A stretch of 17,016 nucleotides of DNA from Candidatus Binatia bacterium. Lineage in GTDB: Bacteria > Desulfobacterota > Binatia > HRBIN30. Below are positions 1-17,016 of this stretch, piece after piece. The first letter of the stretch is position 1. Every line of letters begins with the position of its first letter. A program made the position numbers and the translations under genes. The notes beneath the pieces were generated by a model. That model was not told the DNA's origin. It did no database searches and saw only the letters and a list, made by a program, of their open reading frames with translations. Where the stretch lies: positions 1-17,016 of the forward strand of contig JBGQHM010000111.1 in NCBI GenBank assembly GCA_041497995.1, read 5' to 3'.

Positions 1-2073
1 GCTTGGGAACGTGACACGCCGCGCACGAATTGGGGTCTCGGGTTCATCGAAGTGCACGACGCACGCGCAATGCCGCTCGGTTGGACCGAGCCCGACTTCG
101 ACGACGCGGCGTGGGACGCCGTGCAGATCCTGTCCGTTGGCGGCGGGCCACCTGACTCGATGCTCGGCGGTCTGAAGATCGAGCCGTTTCCCACGCTCGT
201 GCCACGCGCGATTCCGTTCCTCACAGAGGCGCCGGTTGCGCCCCTGCGTGTCGTCCAATGGTACGGCGCGGTTCCCGACAAGGAGTTGTCGCTGGAACGC
301 AGGCTCTATGAGGAAACGCTGCAGCCGTTGCCAGCCGGGGCGGTCGACCATCCCGACGCGTTGCTGCAATCCGACGACGGCGTGACCACTGTGCGCACGG
401 TCGAGGGATTGGATACCTCCTTCCTGCTCGACTTCGGACGCATCCATTCCGGCTATCCATTCATCGAGTTGGAGGCGCACGGTGGCGAAGTCGTCGAGGT
501 CGCGGTGGCCGAGGGCATTCCGGGTGAGTGGGACGCTGCGCTGCCGGCGCAGCCGCGCATCTCGAAAGACAGCGGGCACGGGACACATCTCTTCCGCTAC
601 ATCGCGCGGCCCGGCCGCCAGCGCTTCGAGCGTTTCGAATGGGCTGCCGTGCGCTACGCGCAAGTCACCGTGCGCAGCGCACCGCGTGGTCTGCACATCC
701 GTCACGTTGGGTCGACGTTCACGCACTACCCCGCCGACGCACGCGGGCGCTTCGAGTGTTCTGATCCGTTGCTCAACCAGCTGTGGGAGGTTGGGCGCTA
801 CACGCTGCAGCTGTGCATGCACGACGGCTGGGAGGACTGTCCCGGCCGCGAGCAACGTCAATGGCTCGGTGATGCCACAGTCGAGTTCCTCGTCGGCCAG
901 GCCGCGTTCGGCCCCAGTATCAACGCGCTCAACCGTCAGTTCCTGCAGCACGCCGCGGAGAGTCAGCGGTCCGACGGGCTGACGCAGATGTATGCGCCGG
1001 GAGATCATCGCACCAACGGCATGCTCATCCCCGATTGGACGCTGCAGTGGATCCTGAACGCCGAGCAGCATCTGCTGTACACCGGAGAAGTCGATGCGAT
1101 CGAGGCCGTGTTCCCAGCGATTCAGCGCGCGCTGGCGTGGTTCGAGCGGCAGATCGGACCGCACGACCTGGTGGCCAACCTACCGTACTGGCACTTCCAC
1201 GATTGGGCGGCGGTCGGGCGACAGGGGGAAGCGGCGACGCTCAACGCCGTCCTCGTCGGCGCGTTACGCGCCGGTGCAACGCTCGCGCGGGCGCTCGAAT
1301 CGGGACGCGCGGCGCGCCGCTACGACGCTGTGGCCGAGCGCATCACGGCGGCACTCAACGCGCGCCATTGGGATGCAGAGCGCGGAGTGTACGTCGACTG
1401 CGTCGACCCCGCGACCGACAAGCGCGAGCCACGTGCTTCGCAGCATGCCAACGCAGCACTGATTCTGTGGGACATCGCGCCGCGCGAGCGCTGGGCGTCG
1501 ATGATCCAGCGCATCACCGACCCGGCGCGCGTCGTCTTCACCGCCGCGCCGCCCATCGTGCCGAGCGGTGCGCCCTTCGATCCTGAGAACAACGTCGTCC
1601 TGGCCAACACGTTCTTCAGCCACTTCGTCTACCGCGCCCTCTGCCGCGCCGGTCGGTTCGATCTCGTGCTGGCAATGATGCGCGAGCGTTACGGCCGCAT
1701 GCTGGCGCGCGGCGCCACGACGCTGTGGGAGAGCTACGACCCCACCGCCAGCCTGTGCCATGGCTTCTCGGCGACTCCCGTGTACCAGTTGTCGACGGAG
1801 GTGCTTGGGGTGTACCCCACCGCACCCGGCTTCACCCGCTTCCGCGTGTCGCCGCAACTCGGTGATCTGCAGCGGGCCGGCGGACGCTTTCCCACTGTGC
1901 GGGGCGACGTCGAAGTACAGTGGGTGCGGAGCGCAGATCGAGTCGACATCGACATTACGGTCCCGGATCACACCGAGGCGGAACTGATTCCACCGTTCGG
2001 CGGCGACCCGCCGGTGCGGCTGGGACCGGGCCGCCATCGTTCGCGCGTTGCGGTCCCACACGAAAAAGCTTGA
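1..2073 (+). CDS. Glycoside hydrolase family 78 (alpha-L-rhamnosidase-like, six-hairpin glycosidase), 5'-truncated by the window edge
   Basis: Frame 1 is open from nt 1 with no stop, so the listed M at 52 is probably internal. The GH78-typical segment 'WEDCPGREQRQWLGD' and (alpha/alpha)6-barrel-like content are present. Stop is TGA at 2071-2073. Confidence 0.7.
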   Translation, partial: AWERDTPRTNWGLGFIEVHDARAMPLGWTEPDFDDAAWDAVQILSVGGGPPDSMLGGLKIEPFPTLVPRAIPFLTEAPVAPLRVVQWYGAVPDKELSLERRLYEETLQPLPAGAVDHPDALLQSDDGVTTVRTVEGLDTSFLLDFGRIHSGYPFIELEAHGGEVVEVAVAEGIPGEWDAALPAQPRISKDSGHGTHLFRYIARPGRQRFERFEWAAVRYAQVTVRSAPRGLHIRHVGSTFTHYPADARGRFECSDPLLNQLWEVGRYTLQLCMHDGWEDCPGREQRQWLGDATVEFLVGQAAFGPSINALNRQFLQHAAESQRSDGLTQMYAPGDHRTNGMLIPDWTLQWILNAEQHLLYTGEVDAIEAVFPAIQRALAWFERQIGPHDLVANLPYWHFHDWAAVGRQGEAATLNAVLVGALRAGATLARALESGRAARRYDAVAERITAALNARHWDAERGVYVDCVDPATDKREPRASQHANAALILWDIAPRERWASMIQRITDPARVVFTAAPPIVPSGAPFDPENNVVLANTFFSHFVYRALCRAGRFDLVLAMMRERYGRMLARGATTLWESYDPTASLCHGFSATPVYQLSTEVLGVYPTAPGFTRFRVSPQLGDLQRAGGRFPTVRGDVEVQWVRSADRVDIDITVPDHTEAELIPPFGGDPPVRLGPGRHRSRVAVPHEKA

Positions 2074-2153
2074 CCTTGAGAGCCAGGACGCCTACCTTCG
2101 CAGCGTTGGCTCCGGGGGGAGCGGAACCCTACAGATCGATGGAGGGACAGCTG

Positions 2154-2810
2154 ATGGAGGGACATCGCACGAGAGCGCGCGCGTTGGTAACTCTCACCGC
2201 GTGCACGGCGTTGCTTGCTGCCGTTAGTCTTCGCCCGAACCCCACGCTTGCTCAGGGCACCGGGGTAGGGGACTGCCTGAAGGGATGCCGGACCACCGCC
2301 AAGTCGTGCAATGATCCGGTGCGCAGCGACCACAAGACCTGTGCGCAGGGCTGCCGCGACGACATGAAGACGACGCTGCAAGGGTGCAAGACGGCTCAAG
2401 ACCCCGCGGCCTGCATCGGCGGCGCGTTTGACGGAGCCGAGACCTGCCTCGATGGCTGCCGGGCAACGGGGCAGACGGCTCACGCGACCTGCTTCGGCAA
2501 CACCAACGATTGCATCAAGGTGTGCACCCCGGAGTTGGGTGACTGCATCGTCGGCTGCCGGGAAACTGCGCGCACCTGCAAACAGGCAGCATATGATACC
2601 GGGTACACCTGCAAAGACAGCTGCCGGGAAACGCTGAAGACCATGCTGCAAGGCTGTCCGAGCGCCGCCGACCCGAGCGCCTGTGCGCACGCCGCGCGCG
2701 ACGCGGCAAAGATGTGCACGCAGCCGTGCGCGGACGCCGTCCGGTCTGCGATGAATGGTTGCACGGCGGACGCGAAGACGTGCAAGAACGGCTGCCTCTC
2801 AGTGCAGTAA
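2154..2810 (+). CDS. Secreted or lipoprotein-like cysteine-rich tandem-repeat protein of unknown function
   Basis: ATG at 2154 follows GGAGGG (2141-2146) at a 7-nt spacing. An in-frame ATG at 2139 is an alternative start, and the track ORF start at 1920 is an upstream read-through. The N-terminus 'MEGHRTRARALVTLTAC...' has a positive n-region, a hydrophobic core and a possible lipobox L-T-A-C. The mature part carries about 26 Cys in alternating 'CxxGCRxTAxxC' (~22 aa) and 'CxxxCRxxxKTxLQGCxxAxDPxAC' (~35 aa) modules. Confidence 0.6.
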   Translation: MEGHRTRARALVTLTACTALLAAVSLRPNPTLAQGTGVGDCLKGCRTTAKSCNDPVRSDHKTCAQGCRDDMKTTLQGCKTAQDPAACIGGAFDGAETCLDGCRATGQTAHATCFGNTNDCIKVCTPELGDCIVGCRETARTCKQAAYDTGYTCKDSCRETLKTMLQGCPSAADPSACAHAARDAAKMCTQPCADAVRSAMNGCTADAKTCKNGCLSVQ

Positions 2811-2891: not shown

Positions 2892-4016
2892 TTAGTTCGA
2901 CAACTTGTACAGCTTCGCCGCATTGCCGGCACACATCTGTTGGCGCTCGGCGGTCGGCACGTCGCGGAACATGTCGTCGACGACGCGACGCGTCTCTGGC
3001 CAATCGCAGCCGTGGTGCGGATAGTCGGTCGACCACATCATGTTCTCGACGCCGATGACGTGGCGGTTCATCACGGCGTAGCGATCGATCATGAACGCGG
3101 CGCGCCAGTTCCGATGAAAGTAGAAGCTCGGCTCGTGCTTGAGCTTCACGGGGAGCCACCAGCGATTGCGCCACCAGCGATCGTCCATCTGCTCGAGGAT
3201 GTAGGGGATCCACCCGCACCCTGTTTCGACGGCGACCCAGATCAAATTGGGAAACCGATCATGCACACCGGAGCTGATGATCTCCGGCAGGTCAGTGATC
3301 ATGCTCGATGCACCGACGGTGGCCAACCCGGTGAGGTCGTCGCCGCGCACGCCCTTGGGCTTCGGCTTCAGGATCTGGCGCATCACCCGCACGTGAAAGT
3401 GCACCGGCACACATGCCGCCTGCACGGCATCCCAGAACGGATCGTCTTCGGGGCGGATCGCCGGGCCGGCGCTGGGCATGGTGTTGAGCCACACCCCGCG
3501 CATGCCCATCTTCAGGCAGCGTTCCATTTCCTTGATGCACGCATCGACGCCGAGCGCCGGCATCGCCGCCAACCCGATGAGCCGGTCCGGCGCTGCTTTC
3601 ACGAACTCCTGCGCCAGCCAGTTGTTGTAGGCCTGCACACCAGCGAGATGGAACTCGGGGTCAGGATCGGAAAAGAAGTGACTCATCATGCGCGCCGAAC
3701 CGAAGAGCACTTCCGCGTCGACGCCGTCGGTGTCCTGTTCTTCGAGACGCGGCGCCGCCTTGAAGTTCCCTTGATTCGCCGCCGCGAAGGTCACGCCGGT
3801 CCAGCGCACCTCTTCATGCTTGCGGCCCGCTGATGCGTAAATCCCGATCGGTGCCGGAGGCGTTTCGGGGGCAAACTGCCACGCTTCGCCACCTTCGCCG
3901 TCGGGCACGACTCGCGGTGCTTTCGCATGGAACTTCTTGGGCATGTACTCGGTCCACAGATGCGGCGGTTCGAGGATGTGCGAGTCCGCCGAGATGAGTC
4001 TGTATTCACGCGCCAT
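2892..4016 (-). CDS. Amidohydrolase-2 family metal-dependent hydrolase/decarboxylase (ACMSD/LigW-like)
   Basis: A 374-aa ORF. The N-terminus 'ISADSHILEPPHLWTEYMP' matches the Amidohydro_2 metal-binding HxH-type start. His/Asp residues typical of the TIM-barrel amidohydrolase fold follow. Confidence 0.7.
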   Translation of the reverse strand: MAREYRLISADSHILEPPHLWTEYMPKKFHAKAPRVVPDGEGGEAWQFAPETPPAPIGIYASAGRKHEEVRWTGVTFAAANQGNFKAAPRLEEQDTDGVDAEVLFGSARMMSHFFSDPDPEFHLAGVQAYNNWLAQEFVKAAPDRLIGLAAMPALGVDACIKEMERCLKMGMRGVWLNTMPSAGPAIRPEDDPFWDAVQAACVPVHFHVRVMRQILKPKPKGVRGDDLTGLATVGASSMITDLPEIISSGVHDRFPNLIWVAVETGCGWIPYILEQMDDRWWRNRWWLPVKLKHEPSFYFHRNWRAAFMIDRYAVMNRHVIGVENMMWSTDYPHHGCDWPETRRVVDDMFRDVPTAERQQMCAGNAAKLYKLSN

Positions 4017-8633: not shown

Positions 8634-9260
8634 TTACTTTCTCACGAAACCGCCGACGCCACGCACGATGAAGCTGTCGCACGTCGCGTCATTCAAGCGC
8701 GTCGCGATGTCGGTGGAGGAATTGGTCCCCAGACAGTTGCCCGCTCCAGCTGACTCGAGCAGCGCGACGCCGAGGACGGCGAACGGACTGCCTGAGGGAA
8801 ACGTGAGGCTGGCGAACACCGGGCCGAGATCCACTTTCACCTTGCCCTTGCCGCCCTTCAGCACGACCTTGACGTAGACATTCGTGACGTCGTCGCAGAT
8901 CGGTGGTGCTGCGGTGTCGACCGGGCAAGTGCTGACGGCGATTTTGAGGATGGGGTTGTTGGAATCGCTTTCTGTGGGCCCCGTCGTCATGAGGGCGCCG
9001 GCTCCGTCGGTCACTCCCTGGATCGTGCCAGTCACCTTGAGCGTGTCCGGAATCGTCACCTTCGATTTCGGAGACATCTTCGCCAGCGCGCATTCCGAAT
9101 TGTCAAACCCGCAGCTGAGACCCACGTTCAAGCAGAAGCCGGGACCGACGAAACAATCGGGCGGAGCGGGGATGATGTTCAGCTGGACCTTTGTCCCGGC
9201 CGCGGCCTGCGTGGCAACCAAGGAAAGCATCAACGCGAGCAAAGAGAATCGTCTGCTCAT
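8634..9260 (-). CDS. Secreted hypothetical protein (Sec signal peptide, 8 Cys)
   Basis: ATG at 9260 on the minus strand, with GGGGAGG about 9 nt upstream. The N-terminus 'MSRRFSLLALMLSLVATQAAAG' is a classic signal peptide. The track ORF start at 9332 is an upstream read-through. The body is G/T/S-rich with paired Cys. Confidence 0.6.
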   Translation of the reverse strand: MSRRFSLLALMLSLVATQAAAGTKVQLNIIPAPPDCFVGPGFCLNVGLSCGFDNSECALAKMSPKSKVTIPDTLKVTGTIQGVTDGAGALMTTGPTESDSNNPILKIAVSTCPVDTAAPPICDDVTNVYVKVVLKGGKGKVKVDLGPVFASLTFPSGSPFAVLGVALLESAGAGNCLGTNSSTDIATRLNDATCDSFIVRGVGGFVRK

Positions 9261-9339
9261 GATCACTACCTCCCCTTCTTGTTTTTTGCGATGGTGCTCC
9301 CAGGCAGGCAAAGTTGTCAAGCGTACCTGCACATCGGTC

Positions 9340-9368
9340 TTGACTTAACGAACGTTTGTTCGTAGCTA
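9340..9368 (+). promoter_or_regulatory. Sigma-70-like promoter (TTGACT-N17-TAGCTA) overlapped by a palindromic TetR-type operator ACGAAC-gttt-GTTCGT (9348-9363)
   Basis: Seen in sequence in the 128-bp divergent intergenic region between the secreted-protein gene and the TetR gene. Confidence 0.5.
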
Positions 9369-9388
9369 CAGCCGGGGTCTCCAATCCA

Positions 9389-10069
9389 GTGGTCACGAGC
9401 GTACGCAAGGCCAAACGCGCGGCAACGCCGACGCCGGCGCTACCGACGCGCGAGGTGATTCTCGACACTGCCGAGCGGCTGTTCGCCATGCATGGGGTGG
9501 ACAGCGTGGCGCTGCGCGATCTGGCGCGCGAGATGAACCTGACGGCACCGAGTTTGTACAACCACTTCCCCAGCAAGCAGGCACTGTACGACGCGGTACT
9601 GGACCGCGGCTTGCGGCCGATCCTCGAAGCGATTGCCGCGGCGTGGCATCCCGGCGCACTGCGCGCCGAACAGATGCGCGCCACGGTCGATACGCTGACG
9701 ACTCACCTCGCCACCCACCCGCATCTCGCCCGCCTGCTGCAGCGCGCGATGCTCGACCAGAGCGAGAGCGTGCAGAAACTCATGAGTCGCTGGCTCACGC
9801 CGCTGTACGTCGAGGGCATCGCTGTGATTCGCGAGACCGCCGGCGACGCCGGCTGGGAGGCAGACGAGGTGCCGCATCTCACCCTCGGATTGTTTGGGAT
9901 GGTCTTCGCGTATTTTACCAACGCCGCTGCGCTGCAATCGTTTGTTGCCGGCAGCGGCGATCCCATGTCACCGCAAGCGCTGGCGATCCAGCGCCGCGTC
10001 ATCGAAAAGGCGATCTACCGCTTGCTCGGGCCGCTGCCGCGCGGCGCCGAACGCAGAAAGAAGGCATGA
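9389..10069 (+). CDS. TetR/AcrR family transcriptional regulator
   Basis: HTH segment 'EVILDTAERLFAMHGVDSVALRDLAREMNLTAPSLYNHFPSKQALY'. The start is uncertain: GTG at 9389 is preferred, because the TTG at 9356 listed by the track lies inside the operator and promoter. Stop is TGA at 10067-10069. Confidence 0.75.
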   Translation: MVTSVRKAKRAATPTPALPTREVILDTAERLFAMHGVDSVALRDLAREMNLTAPSLYNHFPSKQALYDAVLDRGLRPILEAIAAAWHPGALRAEQMRATVDTLTTHLATHPHLARLLQRAMLDQSESVQKLMSRWLTPLYVEGIAVIRETAGDAGWEADEVPHLTLGLFGMVFAYFTNAAALQSFVAGSGDPMSPQALAIQRRVIEKAIYRLLGPLPRGAERRKKA

Positions 10070-10073
10070 GAGC

Positions 10074-11195
10074 ATGGCTGCAGCTGAACAGGGAAAGATC
10101 ACCGACGAAGGCATCGCTAAGCTGCGCGAACGCGTCGGCAAAGGCTTCGAAGGCCGGCGCCCGTGGCGCACTGAAGTCACGCGCGACGCCATTTATCACC
10201 TCGCGTTGGCGATCGGCGACCTCAACCCGCTGTACCTCGACGAGGAGTACGCCAAGAAGACGCGCTGGGGGACGCTGCTGGCGCCGCCGATCATCGTGCA
10301 GACGATGGACACGCTGCGCGCCGTCGGCCACAGCGGTCTGCCCGAAGGCCTGCCGGGCGTGCACTCCATCTGGACCGGCTCGCTCTATGAGTGGGTACGT
10401 CCGCCGCAGCTCGGTGACCGCATTCGCGCCGACTCCTACATGAAGGAGATCCGCGAGAAGGACAGCACCTTCGGCGGCGGCCGCGCGCTCTATCAAACCT
10501 ACGAGGCCAAGTACTACGACCAGAACGGTACCTACATGGGCGTCCGCAACGACACCTGGATTCGCATCGAGCGCGCCAAGACGGCGGAGAAAAAGAAATA
10601 CGGCGACATCAAGTTGGCCGAATGGAAGCCGGAAGACATCACGGGCTTCATGGAAGAGTACCGCACCGAACGACGTACGACCGCACGCTATTGGAACGAC
10701 GTGAAAGTGGGCGAGTCGATGAACCGCATCATCAAGGGCCCGCTGACACCGACCGCCGAGATCGCCTTCGAGTCATACTTCGGCATCTATTTGGTCGGCA
10801 ACAAAGTCGCCGCAAACCTGTACGCCAAGCACCCGGCGCTGATGATTCCCAACGAGCAAGGCATCCCCGAGCCACCGCAACGTGTGCATTGGGACAACGC
10901 CTTCACGCAACGTTTGCTCGGCTTGCCAGGTGCGTATGATCTCGGTCCTGAGCGGTGCTCGTGGCTCATCCAGGGGATGACCGACTGGATCGGCGACAAC
11001 GGCCGGCTGACCAAGCTCGAAGCCAAGTACCTGAAGTTCAACTACATGGGTGACGTCACCTGGGTGCAGGGCAAGGTGACCGACAAGTTCGAACAGGATG
11101 GTAAAGGCTTCGTACGCTGCGCGCTCGAATGCGTCAACCATCGCGACGAAGTTACGGCGGCGGCAACCGCCGAGGCGGAGTTGCCACACCGCTGA
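10074..11195 (+). CDS. Double hot-dog MaoC-family (R)-specific enoyl-CoA hydratase/dehydratase (MaoC_dehydrat_N plus MaoC_dehydratase)
   Basis: ATG at 10074 lies 4 nt after the TetR stop, giving a 373-aa product. The track start at 9894 is an in-frame read-through of the TetR 3' end. Two hot-dog halves are visible, one of them at 'HRDEVTAAATAEAELPHR'. Confidence 0.7.
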   Translation: MAAAEQGKITDEGIAKLRERVGKGFEGRRPWRTEVTRDAIYHLALAIGDLNPLYLDEEYAKKTRWGTLLAPPIIVQTMDTLRAVGHSGLPEGLPGVHSIWTGSLYEWVRPPQLGDRIRADSYMKEIREKDSTFGGGRALYQTYEAKYYDQNGTYMGVRNDTWIRIERAKTAEKKKYGDIKLAEWKPEDITGFMEEYRTERRTTARYWNDVKVGESMNRIIKGPLTPTAEIAFESYFGIYLVGNKVAANLYAKHPALMIPNEQGIPEPPQRVHWDNAFTQRLLGLPGAYDLGPERCSWLIQGMTDWIGDNGRLTKLEAKYLKFNYMGDVTWVQGKVTDKFEQDGKGFVRCALECVNHRDEVTAAATAEAELPHR

Positions 11196-11211: not shown

Positions 11212-12447
11212 ATGAAACTGGCAGACGTCGATCTGTGCAACCTCGACCAGTTCGAGACGGGTGTCCCGCACCATGTCTTCAAACTGCTGCGTGCCGAATC
11301 GCCGGTGCACCGCCATGCGGAGCCCAATGGCGGCCCCGGGTTCTGGGTGGTCACGAAATATCACGACCTGATGAACGTTTCGAAGAACCCGGGCACGTTC
11401 TCGTCCTACAAGGGCGGCACCAATATCTTCGACGTCGAGCCGGAGCAGCTCAGCCAAACGCGGATGATCATGCTCAACATGGATCCACCGGCGCATAGCA
11501 AGTATCGCAAGCTGGTGAGCCAAGGCTTCGTACCGCGCATCGTCTCGCGGCTGGAAGAGCACGTCCGCGAGATGACGCGGCACATCGTCGACAGCATCGC
11601 CGCACGCGGCGAGTGCGACTTCGTCACCGAGGTCGCCGCCGAGCTGCCGCTGCAGGTGATCGCCGAGTTTCTCGGCGTCCCGCTCGCGGATCGCCACAAG
11701 GTCTTCGAATGGAGCAACCGCCTCATCGGCTTCGACGATCCGGAATTCAACGGCAACGCCAAGGAAGAGGGGATGCGCGCCGCCACCGAGATGTACATGT
11801 ATGCGAACCAGCTCGCCCTCGAGCGGCGCGATCATCCGCGCGACGACCTGGTCAGCGTGTTGATGCGTGGCGAGGTTGATGGCGAGCGCTTGTCGGAGAT
11901 GGAGTTCGATTCGTTCTTTCTGCTGCTCGCGGTGGCGGGGAACGAGACGACGCGCAACCTGATTTCCGGGGGCATGCTGGCGCTCATCGAACACCCCGAG
12001 CAGCGCGCGCGGCTGGTCGCCGACATGTCGCTGCTGCCCACCGCGGTCGAAGAGATGCTGCGCTGGGTGTCGCCGGTGATGCACTTCCGCCGCACCGCAA
12101 CTCGTGACACGGAGCTTCGTGGCCAGAAAATCGGCGAGGGCGAAAAGGTGGTGATCTTCTATCCGTCGGTGAACCGCGACGAGGAGATCTTTCCCGACGG
12201 TGATCAGTTCAACGTCAGCCGCAGCCCGAACGAGCATCTCGCCTTCGGTATCGGCGAACACTTCTGTATCGGGTCAAACCTTGCACGGCTTGAGATCCGA
12301 CTGATGTTCCAGGAATTGCTGACCCGCCTGCCGGACATTGAGCTGGCAGGGCCGGTACACCGCCTGCGGTCGAACTTCATCAACGGCATCAAGCGCATGC
12401 CCGTACGCTTCACCCCTGAACGCGCACACCACGCGGCACACGCGTGA
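11212..12447 (+). CDS. Cytochrome P450, CYP125/CYP142-like (steroid/alkyl side-chain terminal hydroxylase family)
   Basis: ATG at 11212 with GGAGAG 5 nt upstream. Heme-thiolate motif 'FGIGEHFCIGSNLARLE', the EXXR motif 'EEMLRW' and 'AGNETTRN' in the I-helix. The N-terminus 'MKLADVDLCNLDQFETGVPHHVF' resembles mycobacterial CYP142/CYP125. Confidence 0.85.
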   Translation: MKLADVDLCNLDQFETGVPHHVFKLLRAESPVHRHAEPNGGPGFWVVTKYHDLMNVSKNPGTFSSYKGGTNIFDVEPEQLSQTRMIMLNMDPPAHSKYRKLVSQGFVPRIVSRLEEHVREMTRHIVDSIAARGECDFVTEVAAELPLQVIAEFLGVPLADRHKVFEWSNRLIGFDDPEFNGNAKEEGMRAATEMYMYANQLALERRDHPRDDLVSVLMRGEVDGERLSEMEFDSFFLLLAVAGNETTRNLISGGMLALIEHPEQRARLVADMSLLPTAVEEMLRWVSPVMHFRRTATRDTELRGQKIGEGEKVVIFYPSVNRDEEIFPDGDQFNVSRSPNEHLAFGIGEHFCIGSNLARLEIRLMFQELLTRLPDIELAGPVHRLRSNFINGIKRMPVRFTPERAHHAAHA

Positions 12448-12458
12448 AGTGCGGCGAC

Positions 12459-13688
12459 ATGAACCTCGACGACATCGACCTGTTGAACGCCGACAACTTC
12501 GTTGCGGGCGTCCCGCACGAAGCCTTCCGTACGCTGCGCCAGCAGGCGCCGGTGTTCTGGCACAAGGAAGCCGACGGCCCTGGATTCTGGGCGGTGACGA
12601 AGTATCAGGACGTCGCCACGGTATCGCGCGACCCGCGCACCTACTCCTCGGCCAAGAAAGGGGTGTTCGTCTTCGATCCGGTGCCCGAAGATCTCCAGCG
12701 TATGCAGCTGATGATGCTCAACATGGACCCGCCGAAGCACACCAAGCTGCGGGCTCTAGTGAACAAGGGCTTCACGCCGCGTATGGTCGCGCAGCTCGAA
12801 TCGCGTCTGCGCGCCAGAACCAACGAGATCATCGACGATGTCGCCGCGAGGGGACAGTGCGACTTTGTGAGCGACATCGCCGCCGAGCTGCCGCTGCAAG
12901 CCATTGCCGAGCTGCTGGGCATCCCGCTCTCCGACCGGCATTTGGTGTTCAACTGGACCAACCGCCTGATCGGTTTCGACGACCCGGATCAGGGGTCGTG
13001 GGAGGAAGGCAAGCTCGCCGCTGCGGAGATGTACATGTACGCCAACCAGCTCGCCGCCGAGCGCCGCGACCATCCGGGTGACGACCTCGTCAGCGTGCTG
13101 ATGAACGCCGAGGTCGAAGGCGAACGGCTGACGGAGCTGGAGTTCGATCTGTTCTTCGTCCTGCTCGCCGTGGCCGGCAACGAGACGACGCGCAACCTGA
13201 TCTCCGGCGGCATGCTGGCGTTGATCGAGCATCCGGAGGAGCGCGCGCGGCTCGCGGCCAATCCCGCGTTGATGCCCACCGCCGTCGAGGAGATGCTGCG
13301 CTGGGTGTCGGCGGTCATCGAGTTCCGCCGCACCGCGACCCGCGATACCGAGCTACGCGGGCAGAAGGTCCGGGCGGGTGACAAGGTCATCATCTACTAC
13401 ATTTCGGCCAACCGCGACGAAGACGTGTTCCCCGACGCCGACCGCTTCGATGTCGGTCGTACGCCCAACGATCATCTGGCATTCGGTATCGGCGAGCATT
13501 TCTGCCTCGGATCCAATCTGGCGCGGCTGGAGATTCGCATCATGTTCGAGGAGCTGCTGCGTCGCTTGCCGGATATCGAGTTGGCCGGTGCCGTCGACCG
13601 CTTGCGTTCCAGCCTGATCAACGGCATCAAGCGTATGCCGGTGGTGTTTACTCCTGAGCGCCAGCGCCACGCCGTTGGCGGAGGATGA
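12459..13688 (+). CDS. Cytochrome P450, tandem paralog of the preceding gene (CYP125/CYP142-like)
   Basis: ATG at 12459 gives 'MNLDDIDLLNADNF', which aligns residue-for-residue with the upstream P450 N-terminus. The GTG at 12444 listed by the track overlaps the previous stop. Motifs 'FGIGEHFCLGSNLARLE', 'EEMLRW' and 'AGNETTRN'. Identical nucleotide stretches are shared, for example 11941-11966 and 13177-13202. Confidence 0.85.
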   Translation: MNLDDIDLLNADNFVAGVPHEAFRTLRQQAPVFWHKEADGPGFWAVTKYQDVATVSRDPRTYSSAKKGVFVFDPVPEDLQRMQLMMLNMDPPKHTKLRALVNKGFTPRMVAQLESRLRARTNEIIDDVAARGQCDFVSDIAAELPLQAIAELLGIPLSDRHLVFNWTNRLIGFDDPDQGSWEEGKLAAAEMYMYANQLAAERRDHPGDDLVSVLMNAEVEGERLTELEFDLFFVLLAVAGNETTRNLISGGMLALIEHPEERARLAANPALMPTAVEEMLRWVSAVIEFRRTATRDTELRGQKVRAGDKVIIYYISANRDEDVFPDADRFDVGRTPNDHLAFGIGEHFCLGSNLARLEIRIMFEELLRRLPDIELAGAVDRLRSSLINGIKRMPVVFTPERQRHAVGGG

Positions 13689-13695
13689 GGCTGCG

Positions 13696-13890
13696 ATGAA
13701 GATTCGCATCGACTACGACTTGTGTGAAGGCAACGCCGTGTGCATGAAGGTCTGCCCCGAAGTCTTCGAGGTAGGTGACGACGATCGCGCGCGGTTACGA
13801 GTTAAGGACCCGGACGAGAACCTGCGCGCGAAAGTCGAGGCAGCAGTGCGCCGCTGTCCGCGGCAAGCGCTGGCCATCGAAGCCGCCTGA
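13696..13890 (+). CDS. Small single-cluster ferredoxin (3Fe-4S/4Fe-4S FdxD-type, P450 redox-partner class)
   Basis: ATG at 13696 with GGAGGA about 9 nt upstream. 'MKIRIDYDLCEGNAVCMKVCPEVFEVGDDD...RRCPRQA' is 64 aa with four Cys in the pattern C-x5-C-x3-CP...CP. It sits 7 nt after the second P450. Confidence 0.8.
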   Translation: MKIRIDYDLCEGNAVCMKVCPEVFEVGDDDRARLRVKDPDENLRAKVEAAVRRCPRQALAIEAA

Positions 13891-13915
13891 GGCGCGCCGC
13901 CCCGCGTTGGGGACG

Positions 13916-13943
13916 TTGACTCCCATCTGATTCACGCTAGCTT
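13916..13943 (+). promoter_or_regulatory. Putative sigma-70-like promoter for the encapsulin operon (TTGACT 13916-13921, N16, TAGCTT 13938-13943)
   Basis: Seen in the 86-bp gap between fdx1 and the EncFtn gene. It has the same TTGACT...TAGCT architecture as the TetR-operon promoter at 9340. Confidence 0.4.
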
Positions 13944-13976
13944 GCGGGTTGTCGACGACTGCGAAGGGAGACCGGC

Positions 13977-14339
13977 ATGGCAAGCGACGCGTATCACGAA
14001 CCGCTGGACCTGATCTCGGAGCGTACCCGCAACCTGCACCGCGCCATCGTCAGCCTGATGGAGGAGCTGGAAGCCATCGACTGGTATCAGCAGCGTGCCG
14101 AAGCCTGCTCGGATCCGCAGCTCAAAGCCGTTCTGCTGCACAACAAGAACGAAGAGATCGAGCACGCCATGATGGTGCTCGAATGGATCCGGCGGAACGA
14201 CGAGCACTTCAATGACCCCATGAAGACGTACCTGTTCACCGAAGCGCCGATCACCGGCATCGAGAAGGCCGCCGAGGGCGAGGCTTCCGCCGCGGCGCCG
14301 AACGCGACGCTCGGTATCGGTGCCTTGAAAGGGAGGTGA
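13977..14339 (+). CDS. Encapsulated ferritin-like protein (EncFtn/Flp cargo) with C-terminal encapsulin targeting peptide
   Basis: ATG at 13977 with GGGAG 6 nt upstream. 'HEPLDLISERTRNLHRAIVSLMEELEAIDWYQQR...NKNEEIEHAMMVLEWIRRN...TYLFTEAPITG' is collinear with EncFtn, including the ExxH ferroxidase motif. A flexible linker precedes the C-terminal 'ATLGIGALKGR', which matches the family-1 cargo-loading peptide (GxGxLKG). Confidence 0.85.
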   Translation: MASDAYHEPLDLISERTRNLHRAIVSLMEELEAIDWYQQRAEACSDPQLKAVLLHNKNEEIEHAMMVLEWIRRNDEHFNDPMKTYLFTEAPITGIEKAAEGEASAAAPNATLGIGALKGR

Positions 14340-14342
14340 GCC

Positions 14343-15152
14343 GTGGACCTGCTGAAGCGGAAGCTGGCGCCGATCACGCCTGAGGCGTGGAAACAGATTG
14401 ACGAAGAGGCGAAGCGTGTCCTGCAGCTCACCCTCGCGGGCCGCAAGCTCGTCGACGTCGACGGGCCACACGGCTGGCAACACGCTGCGGTGAACACCGG
14501 CCATTTGAGCATAAAGTCGGATGCCGTTCTCGGCGTCCCGTGGGGGATTCGGGAGGTCGTGCCGTTGATTGAGCTGCGGGTACCCTTCGAGCTGTCGATT
14601 ATGGAGCTCGACAACGCGGCGCGCGGCGCGACGTTGGACTTGGAGCCTGTCGTCGCTGCGGCGGAGCGCGTCGCCCGCGCCGAGGATCTCACCATCTTCA
14701 CCGGTTTCAAGCCGGCAGGCATCGACGGCATCATCGCCCAGAGCCCGCACCCTGCGATCACCATCCCCGACGACTTCGCGAACTACCCACAGGTCGTCGT
14801 CGAGGCGGTGGAAACGTTGCGGCGCGCCGGCATCAACGGGCCCTACGCGATCGCCCTCGGACCGGACTGCTACGCCGGGCTCTCGCAGGCAGCGGAAGAC
14901 GGCTACCCGATCCGCGACCGGGTCCAGCGCTTCCTCGACGGACCGCTGGTGTGGGCACCGCAGGTTGACGGTGCCGTCGTGCTGTCCGTACGCGGCGGTG
15001 ATTTCACGCTCACGATCGGCCAGGACCTGTCGATCGGCTACGCCTCGCACAGCCACGAGAAGGTGGAGCTGTATCTGACGGAGTCGTTCGCCTTCCGTGT
15101 GCACGAGCACGGCGCCGCGGTGCACCTCAAGCCGAAACGCGGCAAGAAGTGA
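14343..15152 (+). CDS. Family-1 encapsulin nanocompartment shell protein (HK97 fold, linocin M18-like)
   Basis: GTG at 14343, 3 nt after the EncFtn stop, with GGGAGG 6 nt upstream. A 269-aa ORF. 'MDLLKRKLAPITPEAWKQIDEEAKRVL...LAGRKLVDVDGPHGW...VVPLIELRVPF...GPYAIALGPDCY...DGYPIRDRVQRFLDGPLVWAP...GGDFTLTIGQDLSIGYASH' is collinear with T. maritima/M. xanthus-type encapsulins. Confidence 0.9.
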   Translation: MDLLKRKLAPITPEAWKQIDEEAKRVLQLTLAGRKLVDVDGPHGWQHAAVNTGHLSIKSDAVLGVPWGIREVVPLIELRVPFELSIMELDNAARGATLDLEPVVAAAERVARAEDLTIFTGFKPAGIDGIIAQSPHPAITIPDDFANYPQVVVEAVETLRRAGINGPYAIALGPDCYAGLSQAAEDGYPIRDRVQRFLDGPLVWAPQVDGAVVLSVRGGDFTLTIGQDLSIGYASHSHEKVELYLTESFAFRVHEHGAAVHLKPKRGKK

Positions 15153-15195
15153 ATTGTGTTGCTGGTGCCGCGACGCGTGTGCAAGGATCGGAGAG

Positions 15196-15390
15196 ATGAA
15201 GGTTCGGGTTGACGACGATCTCTGCGAGGGAAACGCCTTGTGTATGAAAGTGTGTCCGGAAGTGTTCGAGGTCAGAGACGACGACCGGGCGCATCTGCTC
15301 ATCCTGTCCCCCGGTGAGGAACTGCGAGCGAAAGTCGAGGAGGCTGTGCGGAGGTGCCCGCGGCAGGCAATCTCGATTGTGAATGAGTGA
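15196..15390 (+). CDS. Second small ferredoxin, paralog of the gene at 13696 (FdxD-type)
   Basis: ATG at 15196, 44 nt after the shell gene, with AAGGA upstream. 'MKVRVDDDLCEGNALCMKVCPEVFEVRDDD...RRCPRQAISIVNE' has the same Cys pattern. The track start at 15097 is an upstream read-through. Confidence 0.8.
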   Translation: MKVRVDDDLCEGNALCMKVCPEVFEVRDDDRAHLLILSPGEELRAKVEEAVRRCPRQAISIVNE

Positions 15391-17016
15391 CGTCTCGTGG
15401 TTCGCGCGACCCTCTCGCCTAGTGGTGTCGCTGCTGTCGCTGTTGTTCCTTGTGCTGTCGGCACGGGGCACTGCCAACGCGATCGTCTGTACCGACACCG
15501 CTGCAGTAGTGGCCGCCGTCTTCGGCGATCCGGCCGGCGCGTGCGATCTGAACGGTGACGGCATCGTCAGCGCCGCCGACGTCACAGCCGCGCTCCTCGG
15601 CGCTACGTCGGTGACAGCGACGCCAAGCGCGACTGTCACACCAACTCCCACTTCAAGTTCCGACGCGTCGCCAACCGCAACCAGTACCGCAACGCTCACA
15701 CCGACCGCGACCAGAACTCACACACCGGCCCTGTGTCCGACCAGCGGAGCGGATCTCCTCGTGGAGATCGACAACCAGACCGGCACCTCCCCGCTGTCCG
15801 CCGTGCTGAGCGGCCAGCGTATCGATGTGGGCTGCCGGACCACATCGCTCGCTACGTCGTACACCTTCAGCCTCGAGTGCAGCGGCAGTGGGCTCGTCAC
15901 GTGCGGCACAGCCGGCGGCTTGGCGCCCGGTGAATGGCGCCACTCGCTGCACGTGCTCACGCCGCACACCGGACAGTTGCAACATCAGACCTCGATGCTC
16001 GTCGCAGAAGACGTGCCGAACCCGGTGCGCTTCACCGCATTCACTAGCGTGCTCTCGGTGCAGACGACGGCCAACACGGGCAACGGCTCTCTACGCAATC
16101 TGCTGCAGAATGCCGAGAGCGACGCGAAACCCCTGCTCATCCAGTTCGACCCGTCGGTGTTTCCGGACGGCGTCGCAACGACGATTCAGCTGCAGTTCCA
16201 ACTCCCGACGCTTGCCGCGAGCGACGTGACGATCGACGGCACGGACGCCACGGGCACAGCCGGCAATCGCGTCATCGATGCCGGCGGTCTCGCGATCCCC
16301 GCGTTGGCCATTTCAGGCGCGCGCAACCATCTCGTCGGGCTGCGCTTGCAGAACGCCGGCGGCAGCAACCGCGACGTGCTGAACATTTCCGGTGGCACCG
16401 CCGATGCAAACGTGGTGGAGCACGTCATCGTCGAGGGTGCCGCCACCGGCGACGGTATCGGTGTGGACACCAATGCCGGCAAGGACTTCGACGGCAGCGA
16501 GAACATCATCCGCGATTGTGAGGTGTCGGGCGCCTCGGACAAGGGCATCAAAGTGACCACCGGCGCACACGTGCACGTGGAGCGCTGTTGGGTGCACGAC
16601 AACGTCAACGGCGGGATTCAGTCGACGCTCGGCGGCCACGTCCAGGCCTGGCACAACCTCGTCGAGCGCAACCGCGGCGGCACAGCACAGAATGGCCTCT
16701 CGGTGAATGCACAAGACGACAACACCTCGAACGGCGCGTATTCCGAGATGGGCTCGTGGGGGAACATCGCACGCAGCAACGGGGCCAACGGTTTTTCGGT
16801 GCGTGCCTTTGCGTTCGCACACTCTCGCGACGACTACCTCGCGACCAACGGCTCGTCAGGGATCCGTATCTTCAACGACATCGGCCCCGCCGCCACCGCG
16901 CTGGTGGAGGGCACGAGCGCCGTGTGCAACTCCGTCGACGGTGCCGTCGTCGCCAATACCTCGATGGCCGACTTCGGCGGCGGACCGTTCGCCAGCACCG
17001 GCAACAACGCCTTCAA
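15383..17016 (+). CDS. Secreted multi-domain protein: signal peptide, single dockerin/EF-hand-like Ca-binding motif, Thr/Pro-rich linker and right-handed parallel beta-helix (PbH1/pectin-lyase fold) repeats; 3'-truncated by the window end
   Basis: It is absent from the ORF track because it has no in-window stop. My own translation of this frame from ATG 15383 is open to nt 17016. That ATG overlaps the fdx2 stop by 8 nt (AATGAGTGA). The signal peptide is 'MSDVSWFARPSRLVVSLLSLLFLVLSARGTANA'. 'CDLNGDGIVSAADVTAAL' is a DxNxDGxxxxxD loop. Next comes 'TATPSATVTPTPTSSSDASPTATSTATLTPTATRT'. The beta-helix rungs follow, for example 'NISGGTADANVVEHVIVEG', 'SENIIRDCEVSG' and 'AHVHVERCWVHDN'. Confidence 0.6.
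   Translation, partial: MSDVSWFARPSRLVVSLLSLLFLVLSARGTANAIVCTDTAAVVAAVFGDPAGACDLNGDGIVSAADVTAALLGATSVTATPSATVTPTPTSSSDASPTATSTATLTPTATRTHTPALCPTSGADLLVEIDNQTGTSPLSAVLSGQRIDVGCRTTSLATSYTFSLECSGSGLVTCGTAGGLAPGEWRHSLHVLTPHTGQLQHQTSMLVAEDVPNPVRFTAFTSVLSVQTTANTGNGSLRNLLQNAESDAKPLLIQFDPSVFPDGVATTIQLQFQLPTLAASDVTIDGTDATGTAGNRVIDAGGLAIPALAISGARNHLVGLRLQNAGGSNRDVLNISGGTADANVVEHVIVEGAATGDGIGVDTNAGKDFDGSENIIRDCEVSGASDKGIKVTTGAHVHVERCWVHDNVNGGIQSTLGGHVQAWHNLVERNRGGTAQNGLSVNAQDDNTSNGAYSEMGSWGNIARSNGANGFSVRAFAFAHSRDDYLATNGSSGIRIFNDIGPAATALVEGTSAVCNSVDGAVVANTSMADFGGGPFASTGNNAF

Follow-up and report, generated by a model that had tools for sequence, protein, structure and literature searches.

Two anciently diverged ferredoxins flanking an encapsulin gene pair in a Candidatus Binatia P450 gene cluster are probable P450 electron carriers

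We analyzed a 17,016-nucleotide stretch of DNA from a Candidatus Binatia bacterium (contig JBGQHM010000111.1; hereafter the window), in which two small ferredoxin genes, fdx1 and fdx2, lie on either side of a pair of genes for an encapsulated ferritin (EncFtn) and a family-1 encapsulin shell protein (Enc). The two ferredoxins are old paralogs, and on balance we consider it probable that both are FdxD-like electron carriers for the neighboring cytochromes P450 (P450s), with fdx1 as the principal carrier and fdx2 as a second one, whereas the encapsulin pair would be a resident module of the cluster with its own promoter. According to this interpretation, fdx1 and fdx2 would be [3Fe-4S]-type ferredoxins that take electrons from an unlinked ferredoxin reductase and pass them to class I P450s, and the surrounding cluster would be a catabolic unit headed by a TetR-family regulator, in which a MaoC-like dehydratase gene is followed by two CYP125/124-like P450 genes. 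The role of principal redox partner is assigned to fdx1 because its gene starts 7 nt past the stop codon of the second P450 gene (P450b) and its sequence is almost frozen. The fdx2 protein would be a faster-evolving second carrier in which the cluster site has remained unchanged and the surface hairpin and C-terminus have diverged; its most likely role is to serve the P450s, or some other oxidoreductase, as an alternative or auxiliary partner. The EncFtn-encapsulin system would oxidize and store iron, for storage or detoxification. Its genes may have lodged just downstream of fdx1 in an ancestor of this lineage and been lost repeatedly thereafter, so that their position between the ferredoxins would reflect the history of the locus rather than a dedicated partnership between ferredoxin and compartment.

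On translation, both ferredoxin genes proved to be complete open reading frames (ORFs; ATG to stop) that encode 64 amino acids each and, as the first-pass annotation of this DNA had claimed, they flank the EncFtn and family-1 encapsulin genes. The N- and C-termini are MKIRIDYD and ...RQALAIEAA in fdx1 and MKVRVDDD and ...RQAISIVNE in fdx2, and the shared backbone reported earlier, DLCEGNA(V/L)CMKVCPEVFEV.DDDRA...LRAKVE.AVRRCPRQA, was found in both translations. The same annotation had put the protein identity of the paralogs at 65-70%. Their paralogy was borne out, and the measured value was slightly higher: 46 of 61 positions were identical by BLASTP (75%; E = 1e-33), or 46 of 64 (72%) over the full length. 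It had also described the DNA as diverged, with short identical runs. This proved correct, as 133 of the 195 coding nucleotides (68%) and 27 of the 65 third codon positions were identical, synonymous differences were saturated (proportion of synonymous differences, pS, 0.78), and the longest run common to both genes was the 13-mer already quoted, GCGAAAGTCGAGG.

A recent duplication, part of the outcome that the first-pass annotation had named beforehand as one that would overturn its view of diverged paralogs, is not what we found. Database relatives of fdx2 (80-98% identity) and of fdx1 (80-97%) were all closer to their query than the two copies are to each other. In the combined match set, 132 sequences were nearer to fdx1 than fdx2 is, and 98 were nearer to fdx2 than fdx1 is; that is, the copies are not each other's closest relatives. 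The phylogeny that had been proposed as a check gave distinct ortholog clades in a neighbor-joining tree (16 fdx2 and 22 fdx1 sequences), with a separating split in 187 out of 200 bootstraps, and each copy has a positional ortholog in related loci. Ten positions are fixed differently between the clades (3, 15, 27, 33, 37, 42, 59 and 62-64), all of them outside the cluster ligands.

Synonymous divergence (dS) was tried as a clock and dropped. Because it is saturated between the paralogs and reaches about 0.6-1.9 between orthologs, nonsynonymous divergence (dN) was used for dating. The paralog dN was 0.14-0.19 in every genome and exceeded every ortholog dN (0.007-0.08 for fdx1 and 0.06-0.12 for fdx2). 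When corrected for rate, dN would make the duplication about as deep as the divergence from the two orthologous loci designated L051 and L117 (see below). The dN/dS ratio, with dS near saturation throughout, was about 0.01-0.04 for fdx1 and 0.06-0.17 for fdx2. Both ferredoxins are under purifying selection, with fdx2 evolving several-fold faster. Together, these results support the view that fdx1 and fdx2 are old out-paralogs and not recent in-paralogs.

With regard to protein class, both copies pass the Fer4_15 (PF13459) cutoff of 22.4 bits. All of their Pfam matches were to families of the 4Fe-4S superfamily (Fer4_*), and neither matched the Bfd-type 2Fe-2S family. Across 101 aligned members of the family, C10, C16 and C54-P55 were invariant and N13 was conserved in at least 90%. 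The motifs CEGNAVC in fdx1 and CEGNALC in fdx2 carry Asn, i.e., a residue other than Cys and Ala/Gly, at the variable position, and the earlier label 'FdxD-type' fits both copies, each of which shows the CxxNxxC(x)nCP pattern. Alignment with sequences in the PDB matched C10, N13, C16 and C54 to C11, D14, C17 and C56 of Pyrococcus furiosus Fd, with N13 at the position of the Asp14 ligand. The PDB matches of fdx1 included P. furiosus Fd (1siz), a Mycobacterium tuberculosis Fdx (8amp) and a CYP51-Fdx fusion (6mcw). An AlphaFold2 model of fdx2 (predicted local distance difference test score, pLDDT, 94.7) has a compact beta-alpha ferredoxin fold and resembles structures of [3Fe-4S] ferredoxins, with template modeling (TM) scores of 0.89-0.92 at 33-41% sequence identity against P. 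furiosus Fd (1siz) and the P450-associated M. tuberculosis Fdx (8amp) and Rhodopseudomonas palustris HaPuxC (4id8/4ov1). For 1siz (0.90), 8amp (0.92) and 4ov1, the TM scores were 0.90-0.92. The fdx1 protein, 75% identical to the modeled copy, is expected to fold alike, and the cluster of both is predicted to be of the [3Fe-4S] type. Cys20 was considered as a fourth cluster ligand and rejected, being not invariant across the 101 family members and facing a Lys where the P. furiosus protein has a disulfide partner. Cys20 corresponds to the cysteine of the CP motif, which serves as a ligand of the other cluster in ferredoxins that have two. No disulfide at Cys20 is possible, since the position of P. 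furiosus Cys48 is Lys46 here.

Similar ferredoxins have been characterized in Mycobacterium marinum as redox partners of P450s; there, Fdx4, Fdx7 and Fdx11 (the equivalent of Rv3503c/FdxD) have the CxxNxxC(x)nCP motif and lie beside CYP genes (Child et al. 2018, PMC6237146). All such M. marinum ferredoxins that were examined held a [3Fe-4S] cluster, and several such genes can share one CYP cluster (PMC6237146). Judged by every feature of sequence and predicted fold that could be compared, fdx1 and fdx2 appear to belong to the Asn subclass of this P450-associated class. Members of the class lie one to four genes from a CYP gene, and here fdx1 adjoins P450b and fdx2 is four genes downstream of it. 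Like M. marinum Fdx4/7/11 and M. tuberculosis FdxD (Rv3503c), they are ferredoxins in the range of 62-81 aa with the Asn motif, a few genes from a CYP gene (here of the CYP125/124 type) and with more than one fdx gene per cluster. Unlike them, they come from a Binatia metagenome-assembled genome (MAG) rather than an actinobacterium, have an encapsulin pair between the copies, possess the additional, non-invariant Cys20 (the CP of the ancestral CxxCxxCxxxCP) and are known from their genes alone. They also share the fold and ligand positions of P. furiosus Fd (1siz), M. tuberculosis Fdx (8amp) and the CYP194A4-associated HaPuxC of R. palustris (4id8/4ov1). P. furiosus Fd differs in that its variable residue is Asp and its Cys21 and Cys48 form a disulfide, whereas fdx1 and fdx2 have Asn at the variable position and Lys46 opposite Cys20.

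The features of the cluster are listed in Table 1. All genes from the TetR gene to the beta-helix gene are on the plus strand, and the position of the TetR gene is conserved in orthologous loci. For P450b, an alternative GTG start was found at 12444. The best PDB match of both P450s was the reconstructed CYP125MRCA (8vxi; E = 5e-165 for P450a and 1.7e-165 for P450b), followed by CYP124 and CYP125, which implies that they may hydroxylate sterols or branched lipids as members of the CYP125 clan, here in a lineage outside the actinobacteria. The extant CYP125 and CYP124 structures were far weaker matches for both proteins (E ~1e-100) than 8vxi (E ~1e-165). Upstream of the TetR gene are genes for an AdhE-like protein, an enoyl-CoA hydratase and an amidohydrolase, a gene content that would fit lipid or sterol side-chain catabolism.

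Table 1. Features of the P450-ferredoxin-encapsulin cluster (positions in the window)
Feature	Position	Strand	Description	Supporting match
TetR-family regulator	9356..10069	+	head of the cluster	PF00440 TetR_N, E = 6.8e-15
MaoC	10074..11195	+	MaoC/FAS1-type dehydratase-like protein	PF13452, E = 2.7e-16
P450a	11212..12447	+	CYP125/CYP124-like cytochrome P450	PF00067
P450b	12459..13688	+	tandem paralog of P450a, ~68% aa identity	PF00067
fdx1	13696..13890	+	64-aa CxxNxxC...CP single-cluster ferredoxin	Fer4_15, 46.7 bits
TTGACT-N16-TAGCTT	13916..13943	+	promoter-like element	conserved upstream of EncFtn
EncFtn	13977..14339	+		PF22277, E = 1e-40; TIGR04535, 151 bits (cutoff 125)
Enc	14343..15152	+	family-1 encapsulin shell protein	PF04454, E = 2.7e-89; NF041155, 309 bits (cutoff 100)
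GCGTGTGCAAGGATCG	15175..15190	+	non-coding element	conserved upstream of fdx2
fdx2	15196..15390	+	64-aa CxxNxxC...CP ferredoxin	Fer4_15, 50.2 bits
beta-helix protein	15383..17016, runs off window	+	ORF	PF13229, E = 2e-7

The encapsulin pair itself is a standard EncFtn family-1, T=1-type system. EncFtn (120 aa) ends in the targeting peptide TLGIGALKGR, and its gene lies directly upstream of the shell gene with a 3-nt gap, the organization of two-gene EncFtn/family-1 systems. The closest solved structures were those of Haliangium ochraceum, EncFtn 7oe2 (E = 1e-42) and, for the 269-aa shell protein, encapsulin 7odw (E = 1.7e-88), a system with which the pair shares both the two-gene order and a C-terminal LGIGxL targeting peptide.

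The 86-nt spacer between fdx1 and EncFtn contains the element TTGACT-N16-TAGCTT. Alignment of the upstream regions showed that it is kept nearly base for base in every orthologous locus that has the encapsulin pair (L051 reads TAGGTT in place of TAGCTT), although the synonymous sites of those loci are near saturation. The EncFtn genes of L011-L015 and L033, which are unlinked, lack it in their upstream regions. Since a strict sigma-70 consensus scan of 13600-15500 made no promoter call (one chance-level terminator-like site was noted), it is conservation that points to this element as a putative promoter. Its position suggests that the compartment genes, and perhaps also fdx2 and the beta-helix gene, may be transcribed apart from the TetR/P450 unit. 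The second conserved element, GCGTGTGCAAGGATCG, occurs once in the window and stays upstream of fdx2 in every locus, including L047, from which the encapsulin genes are deleted, and L046, in which fdx2 is displaced by 1.6 kb of other genes. An operator, a promoter and an RNA element are all conceivable roles for it; a scan of the whole window with Rfam matched no RNA family.

To place the window among its relatives, we collected related loci through matches to fdx1 and fdx2 and through a metagenome scan anchored on the MaoC gene (79 related metagenomic loci). On the basis of shared TetR-MaoC-P450 and beta-helix synteny, 12 distinct orthologous loci were defined, one of them the window. The fdx1 gene was present in all 12, and EncFtn-Enc lay downstream of it in nine. 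The full arrangement was observed in the window, L035, L126 and L048, as well as in L040, in which a Uma2 gene is inserted after fdx1. An internal deletion of P450b has left L097 with one P450 and two fdx genes, and both P450s have been lost from L046 and L127, where short remnants remain and fdx1, EncFtn, Enc and fdx2 are kept. L046 has two extra ORFs and L127 two Uma2 genes. L047 (recovered a second time as L038 and, from another sample, as L039) consists of P450a-P450b-fdx1, a 239-bp spacer, fdx2 and the beta-helix gene, without the encapsulin pair. The pair is also absent from L125, which has both P450s and an apparently frameshifted fdx2, and from L117, in which both P450s and fdx1 are followed by unrelated genes and fdx2 is absent as well. 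L051, the most distant locus, is syntenic from the amidohydrolase gene on and has one P450, fdx1, EncFtn, Enc and the beta-helix gene. It lacks fdx2, and no fdx2 remnant was seen when its spacer between Enc and the beta-helix gene was translated and read.

Some details of these loci should be mentioned. The remnant in L097 (1990-2200) is a fusion of N- and C-terminal P450b codons, next to which the ferredoxins and the encapsulin pair are intact. The P450 deletion sites in L046 (6486-6614) and L127 (1211-1462) represent independent events, as does the deletion in L097. In L046, fdx2 has three substitutions in the conserved CPEVFEV core, which reads CSDVFQV, a hint of relaxed constraint after P450 loss. 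The L125 frameshift (3138-3330) is an apparent 1-nt change before RRCPRQAISIVNE that puts the C54-P55 ligand out of frame, and it may reflect either a real pseudogene or an assembly error. Insertions of Uma2-family (restriction-endonuclease-like) genes between fdx1 and EncFtn occur in L040 (6039-6653) and L127 (1829-3035), and this spacer appears to be a recurrent insertion site. Finally, L048 (5193-5436) and L046 (~9700-9778) have additional DNA between the encapsulin gene and fdx2, and in both the encapsulin 3' end (…AAGAAGTGAAyTC) occurs a second time just upstream of fdx2. Both cases look like insertions that came with a duplication of the junction; the inserted stretch in L048 amounts to 170 nt with GGGCTTCGGACTTCGG-type repeats.

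We also examined the neighborhood of related encapsulins in other species, using an encapsulin-protein scan with one genome per species (24 loci, 46-83% identity). All 24 loci have the encapsulin gene and nearly all have an adjacent EncFtn gene; no Fer4_15 ferredoxin and no P450 lies within 6 kb in any of them. Conversely, P450-fdx pairs without encapsulin are common, and the nearest relatives of fdx1 and fdx2 outside this locus lie beside P450s or in other contexts. The linkage of encapsulin to ferredoxins, for which synteny in relatives had been suggested as a check, thus holds within the lineage (nine of 12 loci) and not outside it. The same pattern argues for another proposal of the first-pass annotation, acquisition of the encapsulin genes beside an fdx gene that was already in place, here as part of a P450-fdx unit. 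Its suggestion of an insertion into an fdx locus is likewise supported; that the insertion took place between two fdx genes is not established, as L051 has fdx1-EncFtn-Enc and no fdx2.

The trees of P450a, P450b and the beta-helix protein agree, with L051 as the outgroup, L125 and L117 next, and L047 as the sister of L048, which has the encapsulin pair. The encapsulin tree is in broad agreement with this backbone, one exception being three MAGs labeled Acidobacteria that nest inside the clade, for which either horizontal transfer of EncFtn-Enc or mislabeling of the MAGs could account. The EncFtn-Enc genes of these MAGs (L011, L012 and L013; 5635-6807) are 83% identical to the window encapsulin and have no ferredoxin, P450 or other shared neighbors. 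In the spacer of L047, CACGACGACAGCTGCCGGTGTGCAGCTCAAGC aligns collinearly with CACGAGCACGGCGCCGCGGTGCACCTCAAGC of the encapsulin 3' end in the window (local score 27, reached by one of 2000 shuffles). After this remnant comes the conserved stretch that ordinarily separates the stop codon of the encapsulin gene from fdx2; therefore, L047 lost the pair by deletion. For L125, there was no evidence of such a scar in the fdx1-fdx2 spacer (best local score 20, reached by 227 out of 300 shuffles). The P450b tree indicates that the P450a/b duplication predates L051, so this locus has lost genes before; fdx2 may either have arisen after the split from L051 or have been lost there. The simplest history is one ancestral insertion of EncFtn-Enc directly downstream of the P450-fdx1 unit, followed by losses of the pair, of which at least one is proven and there were probably three. 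The encapsulin genes look like a lineage-specific, dispensable insert in an untidy but essentially ordinary P450 gene cluster.

It should be noted that several observations weigh against the proposal that the two ferredoxins serve the P450s and have no special tie to the compartment. The number of fdx genes does not track that of P450 genes: L097 has one P450 and two ferredoxins, L117 two P450s and one ferredoxin. L046 and L127 have no intact P450, yet they have kept both ferredoxins and the encapsulin pair, a retention that a link between ferredoxin and compartment would also predict. The adjacency of fdx1, EncFtn and Enc is conserved out to L051, and fdx2, which starts 43 nt past the encapsulin stop, may be co-transcribed with the encapsulin gene. 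Furthermore, neither the window nor the longer of the orthologous contigs encodes a ferredoxin reductase, which leaves the electron-transfer chain incomplete on present evidence.

The alternative that survives best, though we regard it as unlikely, is that each P450 has its own ferredoxin, the P450a/b and fdx1/2 duplications having produced two cognate pairs with surfaces that set specificity. The paralogs have diverged to a similar extent (~68% aa identity for the P450s, ~72-75% for the ferredoxins), the ferredoxin differences are clade-specific and lie outside the ligands, in the hairpin 27-42 and the C-terminus, and ferredoxin identity is known to affect P450 activity in M. marinum (PMC6237146). 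However, copy numbers do not co-vary. Although L097 has lost P450b, it keeps both ferredoxins, and two P450s occur with fdx1 only in L117 and with a frameshifted fdx2 in L125. The only concordant case is L051, with one of each. A strict pairing of one ferredoxin per P450 is contradicted by these patterns.

Another possibility, which we judge improbable, is that fdx2 is a redundant copy under relaxed constraint that drifts toward loss and is kept mainly by its overlap with the beta-helix ORF. Simple decay is contradicted by a dN/dS of 0.06-0.17, which indicates purifying selection, and by the intact ligands: every intact copy retains N13 and all three cysteines of the cluster, fdx2 is intact in nine of the 10 lineages that carry it, and the model of the protein is confidently folded. 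This explanation draws on the dN of fdx2, several-fold above that of fdx1 over the same lineages, on the replacement of the otherwise conserved Pro21 by Ala or Ser in three orthologs and the variability of position 15, and on the apparent frameshift in L125, the absence of the gene from L051 and L117, and the invariant 8-nt overlap with the next ORF.

The first-pass annotation had suggested functional specialization, with one ferredoxin for the P450s and one for the compartment, and this we likewise consider to have little probability. In such a scheme, fdx1 would serve the P450s, and the compartment would receive electrons from fdx2 (or else fdx1) as its dedicated cytoplasmic donor; reduction of the ferric core, or of a cofactor bound to the shell, would mobilize iron, for example for the haem and Fe-S clusters of the P450 system. 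For the iron-release reductant of EncFtn encapsulins, a recognized gap, a cytoplasmic ferredoxin has been put forward (PMC11202242), and encapsulin operons of the IMEF type, the only precedent for a link between ferredoxin and encapsulin, encode a Bfd-like ferredoxin (Giessen 2019; Andreas & Giessen 2021, PMC8346489). The conserved adjacency of fdx1 and the encapsulin pair, the survival of all four genes in the P450-less L046 and L127, and the position of fdx2 downstream of the promoter-like element would also agree with this idea. Nevertheless, a dedicated compartment ferredoxin is unsupported because fdx2 and encapsulin come and go independently (fdx2 without the pair in L047 and, frameshifted, in L125; the pair without fdx2 in L051) and because neither ferredoxin has a targeting peptide: both the C-terminal LTVGSLKG/LGIGxLKG-like motif and the N-terminal TVGSL motif, as defined previously (PMC8346489), are absent from the termini of fdx1 and fdx2. 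The lack of a ferredoxin near the 24 related EncFtn-Enc loci of other species and the outside relatives of both copies, which are found beside P450s or in other contexts, also speak against it. Although an IMEF operon likewise places a ferredoxin gene next to an iron-storing encapsulin system, its ferredoxins are 2Fe-2S Bfd homologs with an N-terminal TVGSL and belong to T=4 systems of Firmicutes, whereas fdx1 and fdx2 belong to Fer4_15, have a 3Fe-4S-type motif but no targeting motif, and lie next to an EncFtn T=1-type system. The constant partner of fdx2 is the downstream beta-helix ORF and not encapsulin. It is very improbable that fdx2 or fdx1 acts as the cytoplasmic reductant that mobilizes iron from the EncFtn-encapsulin and couples its release to P450 haem and Fe-S demand, an idea based on the possible co-transcription of fdx2 from TTGACT-N16-TAGCTT, the adjacency of fdx1 and EncFtn, and the joint survival in two P450-less loci.

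The ferredoxins themselves appear to belong to a known class of P450 redox partners, and the encapsulin pair is standard. What is new is the way they are arranged, with an EncFtn compartment that sits within a CYP125-like P450/ferredoxin cluster and has been kept in nine sampled lineages of one clade. Among the EncFtn-Enc loci scanned, flanking ferredoxins and P450s are confined to the lineage of the window. P450s are not mentioned in a large encapsulin survey (PMC8346489; 0 occurrences), and a literature search for a natural system combining encapsulin, ferredoxin and P450 returned engineering reviews only. A slow fdx1 and a fast fdx2 with an unchanged cluster site provide a clean natural case for studying how ferredoxin surfaces set partner choice. 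For the exit of iron from EncFtn compartments, the locus offers a weakly supported candidate donor together with natural deletion variants.

The beta-helix ORF at the end of the cluster starts within fdx2, its first 8 nt overlapping the fdx2 stop (ATGAGTGA, 15383-15390). The same overlap occurs in every locus with an intact fdx2 (L001, L035, L038, L040, L044, L126 and L127 junctions). By eye, the N-terminus of this protein is hydrophobic and signal-peptide-like, and a dockerin-like DLNGDGIVSAADV segment and a Thr/Pro-rich linker were also noted; the overlap would couple translation of a cytoplasmic ferredoxin to that of a protein that appears to be exported, which is an odd pairing. Elsewhere in the window, the ORF at 1920-2810 (plus strand) appears by eye to encode a secreted protein with repeated Cys-rich C..C motifs (…CLKGCRTTAKSCND…CAQGCRDD…), and the 232-aa product of the ORF at 8634-9332 (minus strand), with a hydrophobic N-terminal stretch, also appears by eye to be secreted.

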